Assembly: GCA_964525755.1 (NCBI GenBank)
Contig: CAZGIK010000004.1
Location: 85,293-149,292 of the forward strand
Length of the DNA stretch: 64,000 bases
Direction of reading: 5' to 3'
DNA from: an uncultured Verrucomicrobiota bacterium
GTDB lineage: Bacteria; Verrucomicrobiota; Verrucomicrobiia; Limisphaerales; UBA9464
Below are positions 16,484-24,294 of this stretch, piece by piece (the first letter of the stretch is position 1; each line of letters begins with the position of its first letter). The notes below the pieces were generated by a model, which ran no database searches, was not told the DNA's origin, and was given only the letters and a program-made list of their open reading frames with translations. A program made the translations under genes and the position numbers.

Positions 16484-17119
16484 ATGACACCGGGAGAGGC
16501 GGCGGCGCAGCTGGCGACGATCCGGACGCTGATGGAGCGGTCCGCCCTGTATCGGCGCGCCCTGACCCCGATCGCCCTGGCGGTGGGGTGCATCGGGCTG
16601 GCGGGTGCCCTGACGGGATACGGGCTCCGGATCGACTCCGCGGCCGGGTTCACGGCGTGGTGGCTGGGAACCGGGCTGGCATCGGCGGCGGTGGCCCTGG
16701 TGCTGATCCGTCGGCAGGCATTGAAGGACCGCGAGCCGTTCTGGTCGCCTCCCACCCGACGGGTGAGCCAGGCGATGGTCCCCGCGCTCGGTGCCGGCGT
16801 GGCGATCGCGGTGCCGTTCCTCCTCGACCAGCCCTGGGCGGTGCGGGTCACCTGGCTGCTGCCGGCCCTCTGGATGGTCCTGTACGGCCTCGCCCTGCAT
16901 GCCGCCGGGTTCTTCGCCACCCGGGGCATCCGCCTGCTGGGATGGGTGTTCATCATCGCCGGCGGGGCCGACCTCCTCTGGTGGACCTGCCCCCTGAACC
17001 AGTTCCCTCCGACCGGCCGGTCCCACCTGGTCATGGGGGCCGCCTTCGGTGTCGGCCACCTCGCCTACGCCGCCTACCTGCGCTTCACGGAAAACCGGAC
17101 TCCCGCCCGTGAGCCCTGA
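16484..17119 (+). CDS. Integral membrane protein, unknown function (about 5-6 TM)
   Basis: Track ORF. Hydrophobic segments are interspersed with short loops and it shows GC3-consistent codon usage. Its 3' end overlaps the start of the following regulator gene. Confidence 0.6.
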   Translation: MTPGEAAAQLATIRTLMERSALYRRALTPIALAVGCIGLAGALTGYGLRIDSAAGFTAWWLGTGLASAAVALVLIRRQALKDREPFWSPPTRRVSQAMVPALGAGVAIAVPFLLDQPWAVRVTWLLPALWMVLYGLALHAAGFFATRGIRLLGWVFIIAGGADLLWWTCPLNQFPPTGRSHLVMGAAFGVGHLAYAAYLRFTENRTPAREP

Positions 17120-17417
17120 ACCCCTCCGCCAGCTCGACCGACTCATCCACGAGAAGGGCCGCCTGGGGATCATGTCCCTCCTGGCCGCCTCGCCGGAGGT
17201 GTCCTTCACCGAGCTGCGGGACCAGCTCGGCATGACCGACGGGAACCTCACCACGCACATCCGGACCCTCCAGCAGGCAGGCTACCTCGCCGTCACCAAG
17301 GCCTACCGGGACCATCGTCCCCTCACCACCTGCCACCTCACCGAGGCCGGCCGCACCGCCTTCCACCACTACCTGTCCCTCCTCGAGCAGATCCTCCACG
17401 AGGTCCGGCCCGATTGA
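17109..17417 (+). CDS. Small winged-helix transcriptional regulator (ArsR/MarR-like HTH)
   Basis: Frame of track ORF 17049..17417. The likely start, GTG 17109, overlaps the upstream gene by 11 nt. Sequence: LDRLIHEKGRLGIMSLLAASPEVSFTELRDQLGMTDGNLTTHIRTLQQAGYLAV...LTEAGR. Confidence 0.7.
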   Translation: MSPEPLRQLDRLIHEKGRLGIMSLLAASPEVSFTELRDQLGMTDGNLTTHIRTLQQAGYLAVTKAYRDHRPLTTCHLTEAGRTAFHHYLSLLEQILHEVRPD

Positions 17418-17482
17418 TTCCAGCCCCGCCGTTTGAACATCCACGACCCGCCGCGGTCGATCACTTTGCAATACAAAGCACC

Positions 17483-18394
17483 ATGAGAATCCTGAAGGCC
17501 GATCATCTGGGAATGTGTTTCGGGGTGCGCGACGCGATCGCGCTGGCGCGTCGCGAGGCGGCGCGCGGGCCGGTGACGGTGGTGGGGCGGCTGGTCCACA
17601 ACGAGACGGTGGTGGGACGGCTTCGCCGGGAGGGCGTGTCGTCCACGCCGGATCCCGACGGCGTGACGACGCCGGTGGCGATCATCACGGCCCACGGCAC
17701 ATCCGACCGCCGGCGCGAGGCCCTGCGGGAGCGGGGACTGGAAGTGGCGGATGCCACCTGTCCGCTGGTCCACCGCGCCCATGAGGCCCTCGGCCGGCTG
17801 GTCCGGGACGGGTTCCATCCGGTCATCATCGGCATTCCCGACCACGTCGAGGTGCGGGGCCTGGCGGAGGATCATCCCGGGGTGGAGATCGTGCGGGATG
17901 AGGCCGGAATCGACTCCCTTCCGATCCGCCCCCGGTACGGGGTGGTGTCGCAGACGACCCAGCCGGTGGCCCGGGTCCGGGCGCTGGTCGCCCGCCTGCG
18001 CGACCGCATGCCCGACTCCCTGGTCCGCTGGATCGACACCGTCTGCCGTCCCACGAAGGAACGCCAGGAGGCGGCGGAGGCGCTGGCGGCGGAGGCCGAC
18101 GTGGTGGTGGTGGTCGGCGGACCGCTCAGCAACAACACCCGGGAACTGGCCGCGACCTGCCGGCTCCAGTGTCTCCGGGTGCATCCGGTGTCGACGGTGG
18201 AGGAACTCCGGCGGGAGTGGTTCGGCCCGGACGACACGGTGGGGCTGACGGCCGGGACGTCGACTCCGGACGACGTGATCGACGCCATCGAGCGCCGTCT
18301 GCGCGAGTGGGCGACCGGGTGCCGGGACGGCGGGGCCCCCGTCGCCCGGCCCGGGGGCGCCCTGCTTGAACGGACGGCCGCCGGGACTGTCTGA
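17483..18394 (+). CDS. ispH: 4-hydroxy-3-methylbut-2-enyl diphosphate reductase
   Basis: Frame of track ORF 17414..18394, starting at ATG 17483 (MRILKADHLGMCFGV). Blocks IITAHG, ATCPLV, VVSQTT and VVVVGGPLSNNT. The three conserved Cys are present. Confidence 0.9.
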   Translation: MRILKADHLGMCFGVRDAIALARREAARGPVTVVGRLVHNETVVGRLRREGVSSTPDPDGVTTPVAIITAHGTSDRRREALRERGLEVADATCPLVHRAHEALGRLVRDGFHPVIIGIPDHVEVRGLAEDHPGVEIVRDEAGIDSLPIRPRYGVVSQTTQPVARVRALVARLRDRMPDSLVRWIDTVCRPTKERQEAAEALAAEADVVVVVGGPLSNNTRELAATCRLQCLRVHPVSTVEELRREWFGPDDTVGLTAGTSTPDDVIDAIERRLREWATGCRDGGAPVARPGGALLERTAAGTV

Positions 18395-18409
18395 GCCCTC
18401 GGATTTCCC

Positions 18410-19123
18410 GTGCCCGGCCCATCCTCCATCGCCGCCCCGACCCCGGATTGGACACCGGTCCTCCCGTCGCGGGATTGGCGGTCGCCCGGGGCCGTGATGT
18501 CGGGCGGACTGGCCTGCGGGTGCATCGTCGCCGGGGCCGGGCTCTACGGCCTGGCGATCGGGAGTTGGCGGTCGCCGCTGCAGGCCGTCTTCACCGGGGT
18601 GAAGTTCCCCCTGATCCTGCTGGCGACCGCCGTGGGGAACTCCCTGATCAGCGCCCTGCTCGCCCCGCTGCTGGGGTTGCGGATGGGGTTCCGGGAGAGT
18701 CTGTCGGCGGTGCTCTCCACCTTTGCGACCCTGAGCCTGATCCTCGGCAGCCTCGGGCCGGCGGTCGTGTTCCTCGTCTGGAGCCTGCCGGGTGCCGAGG
18801 CCGGCTGGGAGGATCGTTCCCGGGCGTTCTACCTGCTGCAATCCAGCCAGGTGGCGTGCATCGGCGCCGCCGGGACGGCGGCCGTGGTCCGGCTGCGCCA
18901 TCACCTGGAACGCCGGGGCGGCTCCGCGGCCGTCGCCCGACGGGTGCTCGCAGCCTGGCTGTCGATCCACCTGCTCCTCGGCAGCCAGCTCACCTGGATC
19001 CTCCGCCCGTTCTTCGGCCAGCATGCGCTCCCGGTCCAGTTCCTGCGGCCCGCCCCGCTGGACGGGAACTTCTTCGAGACCCTCGCCTTCTCCCTGCGCC
19101 ATCTGGCCGGTTCCCTTCCGTGA
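18410..19123 (+). CDS. Integral membrane protein, unknown function (paralog 1)
   Basis: Track ORF with a GTG start; an alternative ATG is at 18497. It has about 5 TM segments and shares its block order with the next gene (YGLAIGSW / YGLVIGTF; LRPFFG / MRPLVG; NFFETL / RFFIGHW). Confidence 0.55.
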   Translation: MPGPSSIAAPTPDWTPVLPSRDWRSPGAVMSGGLACGCIVAGAGLYGLAIGSWRSPLQAVFTGVKFPLILLATAVGNSLISALLAPLLGLRMGFRESLSAVLSTFATLSLILGSLGPAVVFLVWSLPGAEAGWEDRSRAFYLLQSSQVACIGAAGTAAVVRLRHHLERRGGSAAVARRVLAAWLSIHLLLGSQLTWILRPFFGQHALPVQFLRPAPLDGNFFETLAFSLRHLAGSLP

Positions 19124-19142
19124 GTCCCCATCCCCACCGCCC

Positions 19143-19838
19143 ATGAACCCATCCGCCGTTCCCACCCCATCCGCCGCCATTCCGCATCCGGAGCCGATGA
19201 CCGCCGGCCAGGCGGTCGCCGCCCTGCTCCAGGATCCGGGCCGGCTGTTCCTCCATCTCGAACACCACGCCCCCGGCCCGATCCTCCGCGTCCACCTCCT
19301 TGTGGCGGTGATCGGGGCGGCCGCCTACGGGCTCGTGATCGGCACGTTCTCCGGCGGCGACCAGATCTGGCGGGCCCTGGTCAAGACCACCATCGGCCTG
19401 CCGCTGGCGGCGCTCATCTGCCTCCCCAGCCTCTACGTGTTCTCGGGTCTGGCCGGTGCGCGGCTCCGGCCGGCCCAGGTGGCGGCCATGGCGGCGTCCC
19501 TCCTGGCCCTGATGACGCTCCTGCTCCTCGGCTTCGCCCCGGTGGCGTGGGTCTTCTCGGTGTCGACCAACGGCGTCCCCTTCATGGGGGCGCTCCACCT
19601 GGTCCTGTGGGTGGCGGCCGCCGGGTTCGGCTTCCGCCTGCTCGGGGCCGGCCTGACGCACTTCGGCGGCCGGTCCGGCGCGGCGCCGACCGCCTGGGCG
19701 CTCCTCTTCCTCCTGGTCTCCCTCCAGATGACCACGGCCATGCGCCCGCTCGTCGGAACCGCCGACACCTGGCTGCCCACCGAGAAGCGGTTCTTCATCG
19801 GACACTGGCTGTCCGAACTGCGGACGGCAGCCGAATGA
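19143..19838 (+). CDS. Integral membrane protein, unknown function (paralog 2)
   Basis: Tail of track ORF 18792..19838, starting at ATG 19143. It has about 5 TM segments and resembles the preceding gene. Confidence 0.6.
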   Translation: MNPSAVPTPSAAIPHPEPMTAGQAVAALLQDPGRLFLHLEHHAPGPILRVHLLVAVIGAAAYGLVIGTFSGGDQIWRALVKTTIGLPLAALICLPSLYVFSGLAGARLRPAQVAAMAASLLALMTLLLLGFAPVAWVFSVSTNGVPFMGALHLVLWVAAAGFGFRLLGAGLTHFGGRSGAAPTAWALLFLLVSLQMTTAMRPLVGTADTWLPTEKRFFIGHWLSELRTAAE

Positions 19839-19847
19839 TCCGGGGCC

Positions 19848-20891
19848 CTATTTCGTGCCCGCGGCCTCGGTCAGGACCTCGGCGATCCAGTCGGACTGGG
19901 CCAGGTACCATCCCACGGTCTCGCGGATGCCGGTCTCGAAGGTGTGGGCGGGGACCCACCCCAGTTCCCGCTCGATCTTGCCCGCGTCGATCGCGTACCG
20001 GCGGTCGTGCCCCGGACGGTCGGTCACGAAACGGATCAGCGACCGGGAGTCCCCCCCCAGCTCCGGACGCATCTCGTCCACCAGGTCGCAGATCCGCTCG
20101 ACGATCCGGATGTTCGGCCACTCGTTGTGGCCGCCCACGTTGTAGGTCTCGCCGTCCCGCCCCCGGTTCAGCACCTGCCACAACGCCTCGCAGTGGTCCC
20201 CCACGTACAGCCAGTCCCGCACGTTCATCCCGTCCCCGTACACCGGGATGCCCTCCCGACGGAGCACCTTGAGGATCACCACCGGGATCAGCTTCTCGGG
20301 AAACTGGAACGGGCCGTAGTTGTTCGAGCAGTTCGTCACCACCGTCGGCAGCCCGTAGGTGTGGTGGTAGGCCCGCACCAGCAGGTCGCTCGACGCCTTG
20401 CTGGCCGAGTAGGGCGAGTTCGGGGCGTACGGGGTGGTCTCGGTGAACAGGCCCGTCTCCCCCAGCGAGCCGTACACCTCGTCGGTGCTGACATGATGGA
20501 ACCGCGGGGCGATCCCGTGCCGGAGCTGGAACGGCTTCTCCATCCACGCCTCACGGCAGGCCTCGAGGAGGTGGAAGGTGCCGACGACATTCGTGTGGAT
20601 GAACGCGCCGGGGCCGCTGATCGAGCGGTCCACATGGCTCTCGGCCGCCAGGTGCAGGACGTGGGTGACGGCGTGTTCCCGCACCACCCGCCGCACCGCC
20701 TCCTGGTCGCGCAGGTCGACCTGCTCGAAGGCGTACCGCGGATGGTTCTCAACCCCGCGCAGGTTCGCCCGGTGGCCCGCGTAGGTGAGGCAGTCGAGGT
20801 TGATCAACCGGTCGATCGACGGGTGGTCGATGACGTGCCGGATGAGGTTCGAGCCGATGAATCCGGCACCGCCGGTGAGAAGCAGGTTCAT
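19848..20891 (-). CDS. rfbB: dTDP-glucose 4,6-dehydratase
   Basis: Track ORF. Blocks [28 protein letters not shown] and the C-terminal [10 protein letters not shown]. Confidence 0.95.
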
Positions 20892-20899
20892 TCTTTTCT

Positions 20900-20930
20900 G
20901 GGCTAAAGGCTAAAGGCTAAGGGCCAAGGG
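20900..20930. repeat. Left arm of a 31-nt inverted repeat (four GGCNAAR heptamers)
   Basis: GGGCTAAAGGCTAAAGGCTAAGGGCCAAGGG. It matches the reverse complement of 21339-21369 at 29/31 positions and ends 8 nt from the rfbB ATG. Confidence 0.85.
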
Positions 20931-20945
20931 AGTGGGGGATGAGAA

Positions 20946-21329
20946 CTAAAGGTGGGATGGGGGCGGCTTGAAGGTCTGCGATCGGGATCGAGCCAGGGCG
21001 GCGAGGGACCGGGCCAAGCCTTCCAGGCGGGCATCCAGTTCCGTCTGAGTGGCCAGATCAACCAACCCCACCTCCGCTGCGATATCCACCTGGGTTCGAA
21101 GCTCCGCGATGGAGCCCTTCGCAATCTGGAAAAAGCGGACCGCCTCCCGATCGCCGCCCCGCTCGTCTCCTTCGGCGATGTTGCTCGCGACGCTGACCGC
21201 CGACCGGCACATCTGATCCTTCAGCCCGAAATCGCGGGACAACGGCGGTACGGACGCCAACCGGTACACCTCAACCGCAATCGCCCGTGCCTCCTGCCAG
21301 ACCTTCAGATCCCGGTATCCCGTCCCCAT
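20946..21329 (-). CDS. Four-helix-bundle protein (TIGR02436 / 23S rRNA intervening-sequence protein family, Avd-like)
   Basis: Track ORF, 127 aa. Blocks YRDLKVWQEARAIAVEVYRL, QMCRSAVSVASNIAEG, RFFQIAKGSIAELRTQ. Confidence 0.85.
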   Translation of the reverse strand: MGTGYRDLKVWQEARAIAVEVYRLASVPPLSRDFGLKDQMCRSAVSVASNIAEGDERGGDREAVRFFQIAKGSIAELRTQVDIAAEVGLVDLATQTELDARLEGLARSLAALARSRSQTFKPPPSHL

Positions 21330-21338
21330 CGCCTTCAG

Positions 21339-21369
21339 CCCTTCGCCCTTAGCCTTTGGCCTTTAGCCC
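21339..21369. repeat. Right arm of the 31-nt inverted repeat
   Basis: CCCTTCGCCCTTAGCCTTTGGCCTTTAGCCC. It contains the stop codon (21349-21351) and the last codons (GLKAKG) of the upstream reductase gene. Confidence 0.85.
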
Positions 21370-22317
21370 CTCTGCAACCCAGTTTCTCAACGACTCGTCC
21401 AGCGCCTCGTCGACGGGGCGGATGCGGATGCCGGCAGCGGTCAGCTTGGTCATGTCGAGCAGGCAGTTGGAGCGCGGGGTCTTGGCCGCCACCCGGTAGA
21501 ACTCGGCATCGTCGGTCCAGTACTCGAACGTCCGGTCCAGCCGCAGCCGCTCCCGGATCAACTCGACCACCTGGCGCGTCGTCACCCAGCCGGGGTTGGT
21601 CACGTTGTACAGCCCGAACGGCACCCGCTTCTCCAAGCAATCCAGGCACGCCTTCGCGAAGTCACCCCGGTGGGAGATGCTGTTGGCGTTGTCATACACC
21701 TTGGCGTAGCGCTGGACCTTGCTCAGGTAGTTGCGGGCGTTGTCCACCCCGTCGAACGGGATCCGCAGCCGCCACAGGTAGCTCCGTCCCAACCCCAGCA
21801 CCGCCTCCTCGCCCAGGGCCTTGGTCCCGCTGTAGAAGCTGCACGGGCCGTCGCGGAAGCTGAAGTTCGGCGGGTCCTCCTCCCGGAACCCCGCCAGACG
21901 CCCGGGTTCCTCCGCGATCACCGCCCGCATCGCCGGCGTGGTCAGGTCCTTCTCCACCCGCCATGATCCGTCCTCCTGGCGCACCCGCGCGCCGCTGTAG
22001 ATGCAGCCGGAGCTGACATGCCCCCACGGCAAGCCCGCCACCTCGCAGGCCTGGGCGATGGTCTGCGGCAGCAGCGTGTTGCCCAGCAGCGTGTCGGCCC
22101 GATGCGCCTCGCAGGCGTCCACGTTCGGCTTGCCGGTGTAGCCGGCGCAGTTGACCACGAACTCCGGCCGGACGTCCGTGAGCAGCGCCCGCAGGCGGTC
22201 GAAGCGCGTGTAGTCCGCCTCGCTCCGCGAGACCCGACGGTACACCCATCCGCGACGCCGCAACTCGGCCTCGAACGCCTCGCCCACATAGCCCGTTCCT
22301 CCCAGCAGCAGGATCAT
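21349..22317 (-). CDS. NAD-dependent 4-keto-6-deoxyhexose reductase of the NRS/ER type (possible bifunctional 3,5-epimerase/4-reductase for dTDP-rhamnose)
   Basis: Frame of track ORF 21349..22446(-), starting at ATG 22317 (MILLLGGTGYVG). Blocks NCAGYTGKPNVDACE, EEDPPNFSF...SFYSGTKALGE, NARNYLSKVQRYAKV, YNVTNPG and PRSNCLLDMTKL align by eye with plant/giant-virus NRS/ER-type enzymes rather than classical RfbD. Confidence 0.7.
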   Translation of the reverse strand: MILLLGGTGYVGEAFEAELRRRGWVYRRVSRSEADYTRFDRLRALLTDVRPEFVVNCAGYTGKPNVDACEAHRADTLLGNTLLPQTIAQACEVAGLPWGHVSSGCIYSGARVRQEDGSWRVEKDLTTPAMRAVIAEEPGRLAGFREEDPPNFSFRDGPCSFYSGTKALGEEAVLGLGRSYLWRLRIPFDGVDNARNYLSKVQRYAKVYDNANSISHRGDFAKACLDCLEKRVPFGLYNVTNPGWVTTRQVVELIRERLRLDRTFEYWTDDAEFYRVAAKTPRSNCLLDMTKLTAAGIRIRPVDEALDESLRNWVAEGLKAKG

Positions 22318-22357
22318 CTGGTCTTTCCTTGGAATCTCGTTGGTTCGACAGGCGGAT

Positions 22358-23230
22358 TCAGCCCCGCCGCGCCTCGGCCACGACCTCCTCGAGGTAGGTC
22401 CGGTACTCGCACCGGGGCAGGCGCCCCACCAGCGTGTCGAGGGCATCCAGTCCGATGAACCCCCGACGGAACGCCGCCTCCTCCGGGCAGCCCACCTTGA
22501 TCCCCTGCCGCTTCTCGATGGTCTGCACGTAGGCGCTGGCCTCGTGCAGGCTCGAGCTGGTCCCCGCGTCCAGCCAGGCGAAGCCGCGTTCCAGCCGATA
22601 CACCTGCAGCCGGCCGCGGCGGAGGTACTCGACGTTCACGTCGGTGATCTCCAGCTCCCCCCGGGCGCTGGGCTTCAGGTCGCGGGCGATCTGGACGATC
22701 TCGTTGTCGTAGATGTACAGCCCGGGCACCGCGTAGTTCGAGCGCGGCGCCTTCGGCTTCTCCTCGATGGAGATCGCCCGCCCCTGGGCGTCGAACTCCA
22801 CCACCCCGTAGCGCTCGGGGTCGTGGACGTGGTAGCCGAAGATCACCGCACCCTCGCCGAACGCACCGAACGCGCGGGAGAAGGTGTCGCCCCCGTAGAA
22901 GATGTTGTCGCCCAGGATCAGGGTGACCGGGTCGGAACCGATGAAGCTGTCGGCGATCCGGAACGCCTGGGCGATCCCCTCCGGACGGGCCTGCTCCCGG
23001 TACTCGATCCGAAGCCCCCACGCCGAGCCGTCGCCGAGCAACTGACGGAAACGCGGCAGGTCGTGCGGGGTGGAGATCAGGCACACCTCCCGCACGCCCC
23101 CCTCGATCAGGGTGGTCAGCGGGTAGTACACCATGGGCTTGTCGTACACCGGCTGCAGCTGCTTCGACGCCACCAGCGTCAGCGGATACAGCCGGCTGCC
23201 GGCGCCCCCGGCGAGGATGATCCCCTTCAT
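22358..23230 (-). CDS. rfbA: Glucose-1-phosphate thymidylyltransferase
   Basis: Frame of track ORF 22358..23332(-), starting at ATG 23230. Blocks MKGIILAGGAGSRLYPLT, KQLQPVYDKPMVYYPL, LGDNIFYG and RGFAWLDAGT. Confidence 0.95.
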   Translation of the reverse strand: MKGIILAGGAGSRLYPLTLVASKQLQPVYDKPMVYYPLTTLIEGGVREVCLISTPHDLPRFRQLLGDGSAWGLRIEYREQARPEGIAQAFRIADSFIGSDPVTLILGDNIFYGGDTFSRAFGAFGEGAVIFGYHVHDPERYGVVEFDAQGRAISIEEKPKAPRSNYAVPGLYIYDNEIVQIARDLKPSARGELEITDVNVEYLRRGRLQVYRLERGFAWLDAGTSSSLHEASAYVQTIEKRQGIKVGCPEEAAFRRGFIGLDALDTLVGRLPRCEYRTYLEEVVAEARRG

Positions 23231-23316
23231 TCGGGGCGGAAGACTACGGATGACGGACCGGAAGGCCAGCCACGAGTGGATTGCCCATCCGGGCGGCCGC
23301 CGGTCACGATCGGGCC

Positions 23317-24294
23317 GTGGCGGATGAGGCATCCTTCGACATCGGGCCCCTGACGTCCCGGCTCCGGGAACTGCGCGGGGCCGGGGTGTACCTCGGGACC
23401 TCGTCGTGGAAGTACCCCGGCTGGTGCGGGCAGGTGTACACCCCCGGGCGCTACACCTTCCGGGGCCGGTTCAGCGAGGCGCGGTTCGAGCGCACCTGCC
23501 TGCAGGAATACGCCGCCACGTTCCCGACGGTCTGTGTCGACGCCGCGTACTACACCTTCCCGAGGGAATCCTGGCTCCAGGGCCTCGCCGGCCAGGTTCC
23601 GGACGACTTCCGCTTCTCCTTCAAGGTCACCGACGAGATCACCCTCCGGCACTACCCCCGACTGCCCCGGTTCGGCCCACGGGGCGGGACCGCGAACCCG
23701 AGCTTCCTCAACCCCGACCTCTTCTGCCGTTCCTTCCTCGGTCCGCTGGAACGGATCCGTCCGAAGGTCGGCCTGCTCATCTTCGAGTTCTCCCATTTCC
23801 ATCCCTCCGATTTTTCCCGGGGACGGGACTTCGTCGCCGCGCTGGACCGGTTCCTCGGCTGCCTCCCGCCCGACTGGTCCTACGGGGTGGAGATCCGCAA
23901 CCGCAACCTGCTGCATCCGGAATACTTCGCCGCCCTGGCCCGGCACGGGGTCTCGCATGTCTTCAACTCGTGGACGGACATGCCCGCGGTGTCGGACCAA
24001 CTGGACATGCCGGGAAGCGTGACCTGTCCGTCGACGGTCGGATGCCGCCTCCTCCTGCGTCCGGGCCGCACCTACCAGGAGGCGGTCAGCCGGTTCGCGC
24101 CCTATGACCGGGTGCGGGACGAGTTCATCGAGGGCCGCGAGGCGGGGGCGCGCCTGATCGCGGATTCGCTGGCGCTCGACCGACGGCGGACCGCCTACCT
24201 CTACGTGAACAACCGCTTCGAGGGAAACGCCCCGCTGACCATCGCGGCGATGATCGAGCGCGCCCGGAAGCGACGGGAGGCGGAACTCGAATAG
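23317..24294 (+). CDS. DUF72 family protein
   Basis: Frame of track ORF 23281..24294; the start is GTG 23317 or TTG 23281. Blocks YLGTSSWKYPGW, FPTVCVDAAYY, FRFSFKV and YLYVNNRFEGNAP. Confidence 0.8.
   Translation: MADEASFDIGPLTSRLRELRGAGVYLGTSSWKYPGWCGQVYTPGRYTFRGRFSEARFERTCLQEYAATFPTVCVDAAYYTFPRESWLQGLAGQVPDDFRFSFKVTDEITLRHYPRLPRFGPRGGTANPSFLNPDLFCRSFLGPLERIRPKVGLLIFEFSHFHPSDFSRGRDFVAALDRFLGCLPPDWSYGVEIRNRNLLHPEYFAALARHGVSHVFNSWTDMPAVSDQLDMPGSVTCPSTVGCRLLLRPGRTYQEAVSRFAPYDRVRDEFIEGREAGARLIADSLALDRRRTAYLYVNNRFEGNAPLTIAAMIERARKRREAELE

Follow-up and report, generated by a model that had tools for sequence, protein, structure and literature searches.

Among the known systems closest to the element reported here is the intervening sequence (IVS) in the 23S rRNA of Coxiella burnetii. 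A 28-bp terminal stem surrounds an S23p open reading frame (ORF), a Shine-Dalgarno (SD)-like sequence and tandem GACAGAT heptamers (2–3 copies, depending on the strain) lie just upstream of its start codon, and RNase III cleaves at the start of the first heptamer repeat (PMC4990558). ORF-containing intervening sequences in the 23S rRNA of some bacteria, among whose hosts we count Leptospira and Brucella as close systems, are one of three puzzles that bear on the present locus. Another is the identity of two very large families, ‘four helix bundle protein’ and ‘GxxExxY protein’, and the reason why they are found wedged in conserved operons such as cas, acc, rfb and SOS. The third concerns the intergenic heptamer repeats that are over-represented in Xanthomonas and cyanobacteria. 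In Xanthomonas, most GGGAATC arrays occupy intergenic DNA between co-oriented genes; they are transcribed, differ in length (mode, four units) and form 70–75 convergent pairs per genome (Rehm et al. 2015; PMC4692102). These arrays form G-quadruplexes (G4) in vitro and were read by the authors as G-quadruplex formers, the enclosed genes being unmentioned (PMC4692102). Here, we describe a cassette from a 64-kb stretch of contig CAZGIK010000004.1 of an uncultured Verrucomicrobiota bacterium (this whole stretch is referred to as the window), in which inverted heptamer arrays enclose a small gene between two genes of an rfb operon. This locus is one case of a widespread, essentially undescribed architecture.

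The cassette lies on the minus strand, between a gene for an RmlD-like reductase and rfbB, and its parts are as follows, in the order of the transcript.

21339–21369, minus strand: 5′ arm of the transcribed stem, GGGCTAAAGGCCAAAGGCTAAGGGCGAAGGG, composed of four GGCNAAR heptamers, with the array extending inward to 21332
21339–21344, minus strand: SD-like GAAGGG, innermost in the 5′ arm and 9 nt ahead of the ATG of the bundle ORF, paired in the predicted stem and of putative function
20946–21329, minus strand: cargo ORF for a 127-aa four-helix-bundle protein (PF05635 23S_rRNA_IVP, TIGR02436), assigned by profile hidden Markov model matches
20900–20930, minus strand: 3′ arm of the transcribed stem, CCCTTGGCCCTTAGCCTTTAGCCTTTAGCCC, a C-rich run of four heptamers that ends 8 nt before the rfbB ATG (20889–20891)

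The two 31-nt arms are complementary at 29 of 31 positions (94%), with 408 nt between them (repeat finder), and Tandem Repeats Finder (TRF) resolves them into 4.4 copies of GGGCTAA in the left arm and 5.3 copies in the right arm. Both mismatches, C·A and G·G, fall at the ‘N’ of the GGCNAAR unit. GGCYAARGGCYAARGGC, a degenerate pattern of about two and a half units, was scanned over the window with up to 2 mismatches allowed and matched 7 times, always within the two arms; shuffled sequence gave a mean of 0.16 matches, and none of 100 shuffles reached 7. When joined by a short linker, the arms fold at −57.3 kcal/mol (z=−8.0), and in a fold of the whole 511-nt region they form the outermost stem (z=−3.3). 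A preliminary description of this DNA had given the arm positions, their 29/31 agreement, four GGCNAAR heptamers per arm and the 408-nt interior, on all of which the repeat finder, TRF and the sequence agree. Its predicted stem of about 31 bp with two mismatches is recovered by the folding, the gap of 8 nt between the left arm and the rfbB ATG is seen in the sequence, and the sole enclosed ORF is, as it had proposed, a four-helix-bundle gene by its PF05635/TIGR02436 matches.

No promoter-like site was found in the operon stretch 19700–23500; the one terminator-like hit in this stretch is no more than shuffles give, and none lies at the arms. The 3′ arm is followed by AGAAAAGAATG, which has no U-run, so the combination of a GC-rich stem and a U-run that marks an intrinsic terminator or attenuator is absent. 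Thus, the cassette is best read as co-transcribed with the operon.

The likeness of the cassette to the Coxiella helix-45 IVS is extensive. Both contain an S23p/PF05635 ORF in an element of ∼430–470 nt, closed by a stem of ∼28–31 bp, with heptamers of variable copy number in the 5′ arm upstream of the start codon and an SD-like sequence inside the stem. The comparison with rRNA IVSs drawn in the preliminary description is therefore strengthened, since the Coxiella IVS likewise has tandem heptamers, within its RNase III-cut stem, ahead of the S23p ORF (PMC4990558). Like an IVS, the window cassette has terminal inverted repeats in the form of a long stem and an S23p-family ORF preceded by in-stem heptamers. 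However, the host of the Coxiella element is 23S rRNA, while the window cassette is found at an operon junction in an mRNA, between protein-coding rfb genes rather than within helix 9, 25 or 45 of a 23S rRNA, and the window region gave no Rfam hit at E≤1. In addition, the Coxiella ORF is decaying and apparently untranslated, whereas purifying selection acts on the window cargo (dN/dS about 0.14). For 23S IVSs, excision by RNase III has been demonstrated; for the window cassette, we infer it from this likeness.

The cargo protein scores well above the cutoffs of both family models (PF05635, E=1.6e-30, 105.9 bits versus a cutoff of 33.8; TIGR02436, E=9.6e-29, 99.8 bits versus a cutoff of 24). 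The nearest solved structure by sequence similarity is that of XCC0516 (PDB 2GSC, E=3.7e-15), and this similarity suggests a putative four-helix-bundle fold and homopentameric ring for the cargo. The RxxxSxxxNxxEG core motif, noted previously for this family (PMC3936711), is present as R42, S46, N50, E53 and G54 (CRSAVSVASNIAEG), and these residues are invariant or nearly so across an alignment of 51 homologs. An identical copy of the protein is encoded on each of four further contigs, again in this context, and 93%-identical alleles (L005, L189 and L190) have the same operon location. Comparison of the window with these alleles gives a dN/dS of 0.13–0.15 (dS 0.22), indicating that the cargo protein is maintained by purifying selection. 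In the three alleles, the arms diverge from those of the window at the variable position within the unit; the 3′ arm has five heptamers rather than four. The L005 stem is nevertheless predicted to be of comparable stability (−54.8 kcal/mol, z=−7.2), paired in a shifted register.

The host genes and the stop codon that overlaps the cassette are listed below.

22358–23230, minus strand: rfbA, glucose-1-phosphate thymidylyltransferase (290 aa; TIGR01207, 421 bits), first gene of the rfbA-reductase-rfbB unit
21349–22317, minus strand: RmlD-like NAD-dependent reductase/epimerase, upstream host gene (322 aa in the gene calls of public contigs; mechanical ORF to 22446)
21349–21351, minus strand: reductase TAA stop, which the third heptamer in the 5′ arm supplies
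19848–20891, minus strand: rfbB, dTDP-glucose 4,6-dehydratase, downstream host gene (TIGR01181, 480 bits, above cutoff)

The window reductase ends in WVAEGLKAKG, and its last six codons and TAA lie inside the 5′ arm. Orthologous reductases stop directly after a conserved E codon (NWKPE), so the window reductase owes its GLKAKG tail and its stop codon to the insert. The preliminary description had assigned these codons, the stop and the SD-like GAAGGG to the right arm, as can be read from the sequence and its translation. The reductase itself is non-canonical: RmlD models match only its N-terminal ∼110 residues (TIGR01214, 75.6 bits versus a cutoff of 224), no rfbC adjoins it, and it is conserved as the X of an rfbA-X-rfbB unit in 80 of 80 relatives. 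The region downstream of rfbB on the other strand (17049–19838), which encodes an HTH_34 regulator and LytB/IspH, is unrelated to the cassette, as are two ORFs there without a Pfam match (18410–19123 and 18792–19838).

These relatives, 80 metagenomic loci encoding reductase orthologs with 63–70% identity, all retain the rfbA-reductase-rfbB order, and none of them (0/80) has a TIGR02436 ORF at this locus. The reductase|rfbB junction is truly empty at 11 loci, with overlapping stop and start codons (ATGAATG), and several more have spacers of only 4–20 nt. At ∼15 loci, it is occupied by an ORF-less hairpin with tandem-heptamer arms and a loop of ∼30–55 nt. One of these (L145) pairs four ATTTACG units with four CGTAAAT units perfectly (28/28); others use CACGGAT or CACAGAT units, and L148 uses AACAAAG. 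Two loci with CACGGAT arms have an extra inner hairpin. A different ORF of 125–165 aa is found at the junction in ∼10 loci, within inverted arrays of the AACAAAG or GAAGACG type, and belongs to the TIGR04256 ‘GxxExxY’/PF13366 family of PD-(D/E)XK nucleases (E=5e-40). Derived forms are also present: one locus (L148) has only the arms of a GxxExxY-type cassette (AACAAAG unit), another (L117) keeps a remnant consisting of the last codons and the 3′ arm, and a third (L116) has three modules in tandem. GxxExxY relatives were not found in viral contigs.

Further GxxExxY cassettes are located one junction upstream, between rfbA and the reductase. Their arms (AACCGCGGATTACGCGGATT / AATCCGCGTAATCCGCGGTT) belong to the unit family that the ORF-less hairpins of the next junction downstream use on those contigs, and elements with and without cargo sharing the unit CGCGGAT/CACGGAT are seen on one contig in L109, L097, L136 and L120. 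On a contig of an Oleiharenicola sp. metagenome-assembled genome (MAG; L009:2300–4400), rfbB is flanked upstream by a GxxExxY cassette with CGCGAAG-type arms and downstream by a bundle cassette with GGCTAGA arms, such that two cargo types, each with its own unit, are present side by side. Six loci (L092, L100, L124, L135, L139 and L151) have solo C-rich arrays that immediately precede the rfbB ATG, lack an inverted partner and consist of three TCAACNN-type units (e.g. CCCTCAACCTTCAACTTGCAACC in L100). They may be what lost cassettes left behind, or else an independent leader element. The reductase|rfbB junction of another locus (L155:3951–4528) contains a DUF2283 ORF and a small upstream ORF without heptamer arms, so this junction is a hot spot for other small inserts too.

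The preliminary description had suggested that orthologous loci be inspected for empty sites and had considered that relatives without the bundle ORF might still carry the same arms. The ORF is absent from all 80 loci, their junctions are empty or hold other inserts, and none carries GGCNAAR arms. Its supposition that the arms belong specifically to the bundle ORF family did not hold, since ORF-less hairpins and unrelated GxxExxY cargo use the same architecture. An unbiased scan of about 1 Mb of sequence identified 297 arrays, 193 of period 7, and within 1.5 kb of the arrays an inverted partner was found in 64 cases and a direct partner in 32.

To place the window cassette within its protein family, we gathered 80 loci encoding family members from named genomes and MAGs, which span Verrucomicrobiota, Nitrospirota, Planctomycetota, Acidobacteriota, Bacteroidota, Clostridia, Proteobacteria and others. 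Each locus was scored by the best ungapped inverted repeat between the 130 nt upstream and the 130 nt downstream of the ORF, with random offsets of the same geometry in the same loci as controls. The median score is 14.5 at family ORFs and 7 in controls (control 95th percentile 9, 99th percentile 11, maximum 13); 80% of the family loci exceed the 95th percentile of the controls and 74% the 99th. The question raised in the preliminary description, whether arms flank other ORFs of the family, is thus answered positively for 74–80% of them. The best tandem period is 7 in 58 of 86 upstream and 58 of 86 downstream flanks, compared to 40 of 407 controls (p=7e-38), with minor classes of period 8 and 9. 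The arrays have a median of ∼4 copies and a maximum of ∼20. They are polarized, with G exceeding C upstream of the ORF in 44 of 51 cases and C exceeding G downstream in 48 of 52.

The unit sequence varies by locus (GGCTAGA, GGCAATA, GGAGTGA, GACGGTG, GGGTGTA and others); it is the arm architecture, and not the unit sequence, that is conserved across the family loci. Unit similarity nevertheless tracks cargo protein similarity (Mantel test, 0 of 2000 permutations): the unit distance is 0.5 between proteins above 70% identity, 2.7 at 55–70% and 3.4 below 45%. This correlation, with distances that rise at lower identity, indicates that arms and cargo travel together and that the arms evolve fast. 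Family members with a like architecture are found in unrelated contexts, between accB and accC, lexA and imuB, or cas6 and cas4, and among polysaccharide genes. The 80 loci contain no coherent 23S or 16S rRNA hallmark motifs, only scattered chance matches. Arms and ORF form one unit, which is absent from orthologous sites and inherited together across phyla.

Population samples of two other cassettes, in which the ORF and flanks are identical, show that the arrays are dynamic. A GGTAATA array has 2, 3, 4, 6 or 7 copies with identical ORF and flanks, and the heptamer copy number changes independently in the two arms. The loci with this array (L169–L178, e.g. L170:400–2550) have the order lexA, bundle ORF, imuB/DinB-like polymerase (IMS), second bundle ORF (151 aa), with two cassettes within one SOS-mutagenesis operon; the GGTAATA array of 2 to 7 copies, depending on the sample, lies upstream of the first ORF. 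Since the arms are tandem repeats, slippage can alter their copy number without abolishing pairing, the stem re-forming in another register.

The family also provides links to the published heptamer repeats. XCC0516, the only family member with a solved structure (2GSC), has X. campestris and X. citri orthologs located between accB and accC and bracketed there by a convergent GGGAATC pair of the published kind; the upstream arm (GGGAATCGGGAGTGGAGAATCGGGAATCGG) begins 6 nt past the accB stop, and the partner arm (CCCATTCCCCATTCTCGACTCCCTATTCCC) ends at the accC ATG. The Xanthomonas GGGAATC pairs resemble the window arms in their tandem 7-nt units, ∼4 copies, intergenic location between co-oriented genes and convergent arrangement, while the window unit GGCNAAR differs from GGGAATC and is a weaker G4 candidate. 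The inverted-arm layout is also seen in plasmid copies from Nostoc punctiforme, Stanieria and Nostoc ATCC 53789. In Nostoc PCC 7120 (pCC7120gamma, L197:1100–1800), the bundle ORF lacks the expected 5′ arm and has an ISL3 transposase gene that ends 78 nt upstream of it; the 3′ CTGCCYT array is intact, and the related Stanieria copy (L199) has both arms. On the Pseudanabaena galeata plasmid pPg_01 (L201:1–2300), the bundle ORF is flanked by cas6 and cas4. That 23S_rRNA_IVP genes occur together with Cas4 and Cas6 has been reported (PMC3936711), and a bundle cassette between cas6 and cas4 offers a simple explanation of it. We found no literature linking heptamer arrays to these ORF families, in a search whose coverage of subscription journals was thin; it brought up the Coxiella heptamers, the Xanthomonas inverted pairs and a paper on TAACTGA repeats of Beggiatoaceae as the sole related accounts.

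Taken together, we consider it likely that the window feature is a promoterless and terminator-less stem-loop cassette of the IVS kind, gained and lost at an rfb intercistronic junction and looping itself out of the operon transcript. The preliminary description had raised a portable stem-loop-ORF cassette as one possibility; the 80 orthologous operons without the ORF, whose junctions are empty or hold other heptamer-bounded inserts, and the arms around 74–80% of the family support it. With its G-rich array of roughly four heptamers, small cargo gene and reverse-complement C-rich array, the cassette would be transcribed as part of the rfb operon. The arrays would pair into a stem of ∼31 bp, with the 408-nt insert looped out, and the base of the stem would bring the reductase stop and the rfbB start within ∼10 nt of each other. 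With the stop and start codons so juxtaposed, the insertion would do the operon little harm. By analogy with the 23S IVSs, the window stem is probably cleaved by RNase III, which would free a monocistronic cargo mRNA and part the flanking messages. Because GAAGGG, the SD-like sequence, is innermost in the 5′ arm, translation of the cargo may depend on opening or cutting of the stem. RNase III processing and gating of bundle translation had also been raised in the preliminary description, and both are argued by analogy.

Several observations weigh against this reading or limit it. Arms beyond the controls are missing from ∼20–25% of family loci. The Pseudanabaena arrays are direct rather than inverted (∼17 copies of AAAAGCT upstream and ∼10 of AAAAGCC downstream); a short inverted AGCTTTT array is located further upstream at that locus. 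Inverted heptamer arrays also bracket ordinary genes, namely rfbB in L129:2424–3636 (ATCCCGA, nine copies) and a 316-aa oxidoreductase-like ORF in L040:1774–2854, so hairpin arrays exist independently of cargo as well. No direct repeat that could be a target-site duplication is present at the outer boundaries of the window cassette or at the other occupied junctions inspected, and no transposase or recombinase gene is found among its neighbours in the window, in agreement with the preliminary description, which had seen neither. There is one cassette copy in the 64-kb window, which has no paralog of the bundle ORF elsewhere. Identical cargo proteins that occur on many contigs (P0036 on 24, P0108 on 19) have one context each, giving no sign of recent or burst transposition. 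The cassette does not behave like a burst-type transposon. The arm mismatches raise a different issue. In 69 modules, there are 97 G·U and 121 A·C mismatches (20 and 34 when counted per locus), and with no G·U excess, selection on the sense RNA stem is not demonstrated. A DNA-level cause of arm complementarity is as possible as an RNA-level one; quasi-palindromes corrected by template switching, or DNA-level recognition, may be its source.

The serious rival is accordingly a DNA-level element mobilised in trans, which disagrees about what the arms are for and agrees on portability. The arrays would be terminal binding sites, or single-stranded hairpin or cruciform signals, for a trans-acting transposase or recombinase or for the cargo protein itself; the ORF-less hairpins would be non-autonomous derivatives of this element that resemble miniature transposable elements with inverted repeats (MITEs), and the RNA stem would be incidental. 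Besides the lack of a G·U signature, it can draw on the sharing of a unit between elements with and without cargo on the same contigs (L109, L097, L136 and L120), the deletion derivatives L148 and L117, the cargo-specific units within one contig (L009) and the PD-(D/E)XK nuclease in one cargo family. The heptamer unit consists of a core of ∼5 nt and 1–2 free positions, and arm mismatches are concentrated by phase (0.43 versus 0.36 expected, p=0.0014, 49 modules), as would be expected of repeated protein-binding sites; in one Xanthomonas locus (L191:2430–2870), each heptamer has one arm mismatch, at a fixed phase. Yet no inspected junction shows a target-site duplication, no transposase or recombinase lies beside the cassettes in the window, and identical copies at different sites are not seen. 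A symmetric DNA signal does not require the G-rich polarity of the arms relative to the ORF (44/51), and the independent drift of copy number in the two arms also speaks against it. We regard this explanation as rather unlikely. Much less probable are heptameric simple sequence repeats born of slippage, over-produced by bacterial polymerases, gathering in intergenic spacers and possibly able to form G-quadruplexes or i-motifs, as has been put forward for Xanthomonas, with a horizontally acquired gene between them by chance. Such repeats are reported to be over-represented in bacteria, GGGAATC forms G4 in vitro (PMC4692102), copy number is hypervariable, solo arrays precede rfbB in several relatives, and TAACTGA direct arrays are found upstream of start codons in other phyla (Beggiatoaceae paper, PMC4679880). 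However, the arrays around each ORF are reverse-complementary far beyond controls, their units co-vary with the cargo protein, many units (ATTTACG, AACAAAG and CACGGAT) are unable to form G4, and the truly empty junctions lack arrays, which appear together with the insert.

A locally evolved, non-portable hairpin that regulates rfb, whether as a site for RNase III, a stabiliser of the mRNA or a means of translational coupling, with a bundle protein specific to the operon, would suit the tight placement of the stem base between stop and start codons, the missing terminator tail after the stem and the purifying selection on the cargo. The comparative data exclude a purely local hairpin of this sort: it is absent from 80 orthologous operons, the same architecture surrounds family members in unrelated contexts, and relatives have a different cargo at the same junction. 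We assign it hardly any probability, and even less to the cargo being the Avd accessory gene of a diversity-generating retroelement (DGR). PF05635 includes bAvd, and many homologs also match PF22296 (bAvd) in precomputed annotation, but there is no reverse transcriptase among the neighbours and there are no direct repeats of ≥40 nt (template and variable repeats) within 10–32 kb of the window, which excludes a DGR. Two further ideas were rejected. An integron gene cassette would have one downstream attC hairpin, in an array beside intI, rather than arms flanking the ORF, and the neighbours here are rfb genes. A role of period 7 in placing stop codons in all three frames was dropped, because many units (e.g. 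AACAAAG and ATTTACG on the sense strand) contain no stop.

Under the cassette reading, the three puzzles are tied together by one architecture: inverted tandem-heptamer arms, with a small cargo or an empty loop, that are gained and lost at intercistronic junctions. This architecture is common to the rRNA IVS, an unrelated cargo family and the ORF-less hairpins. For annotation, it follows that the ‘associations’ with Cas4 and Cas6 that have been reported for these ORFs probably arose as artefacts of insertion, and that arms can rewrite the 3′ ends of genes, as with the GLKAKG tail of the window reductase. The question is directly testable in cultured organisms, at accB-[XCC0516]-accC of Xanthomonas and on pNPUN01 of Nostoc punctiforme. 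A broader scheme can be put forward tentatively, as a possibility of which we remain doubtful. Heptamer-array inverted repeats, with or without cargo (a TIGR02436 ring protein or a TIGR04256 nuclease), would constitute a phylum-spanning, hitherto unrecognised class of selfish stem-loop cassettes. The 23S IVSs would be members that landed in rRNA, while the ‘G4 repeat’ pairs of Xanthomonas and probably some cyanobacterial short tandemly repeated repetitive (STRR) arrays would be mRNA members, either ORF-less or ORF-bearing. The proteins would recognise the ∼5-nt cores of their own arrays, spaced at 7 nt with one core per ring subunit, and so drive maintenance or spread, with the ORF-less hairpins as non-autonomous derivatives.

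Other known elements share some of these features. Repetitive extragenic palindromes and their mosaics (REP/BIME, REPIN) and MITEs are, like the cassettes, short inverted-repeat elements in operon spacers with ORF-less and larger versions and presence/absence polymorphism. In contrast to their fixed palindrome or terminal inverted repeat consensus, window-type arms are arrays of tandem short units, with a coding cargo in the loop, and the inspected cassettes show no target-site duplication, REP-associated tyrosine transposase (RAYT), other transposase or multi-copy identical set. The Avd proteins of DGRs have the same Pfam family and fold class, a pentameric four-helix bundle; relatives of the window bundle protein were not detectable in phage records by tblastn. 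Homing-endonuclease genes in self-splicing introns and inteins differ in that the cassette has no ribozyme or splicing, its neutralisation would be achieved by the stem and host RNase III with no ligation, and the four-helix-bundle cargo has no known nuclease activity. They are nevertheless alike in principle: in both, a small selfish gene resides in a sequence that removes or neutralises itself at the RNA level, the host gene or operon keeps working, and one of the cassette cargo families is itself a PD-(D/E)XK nuclease.

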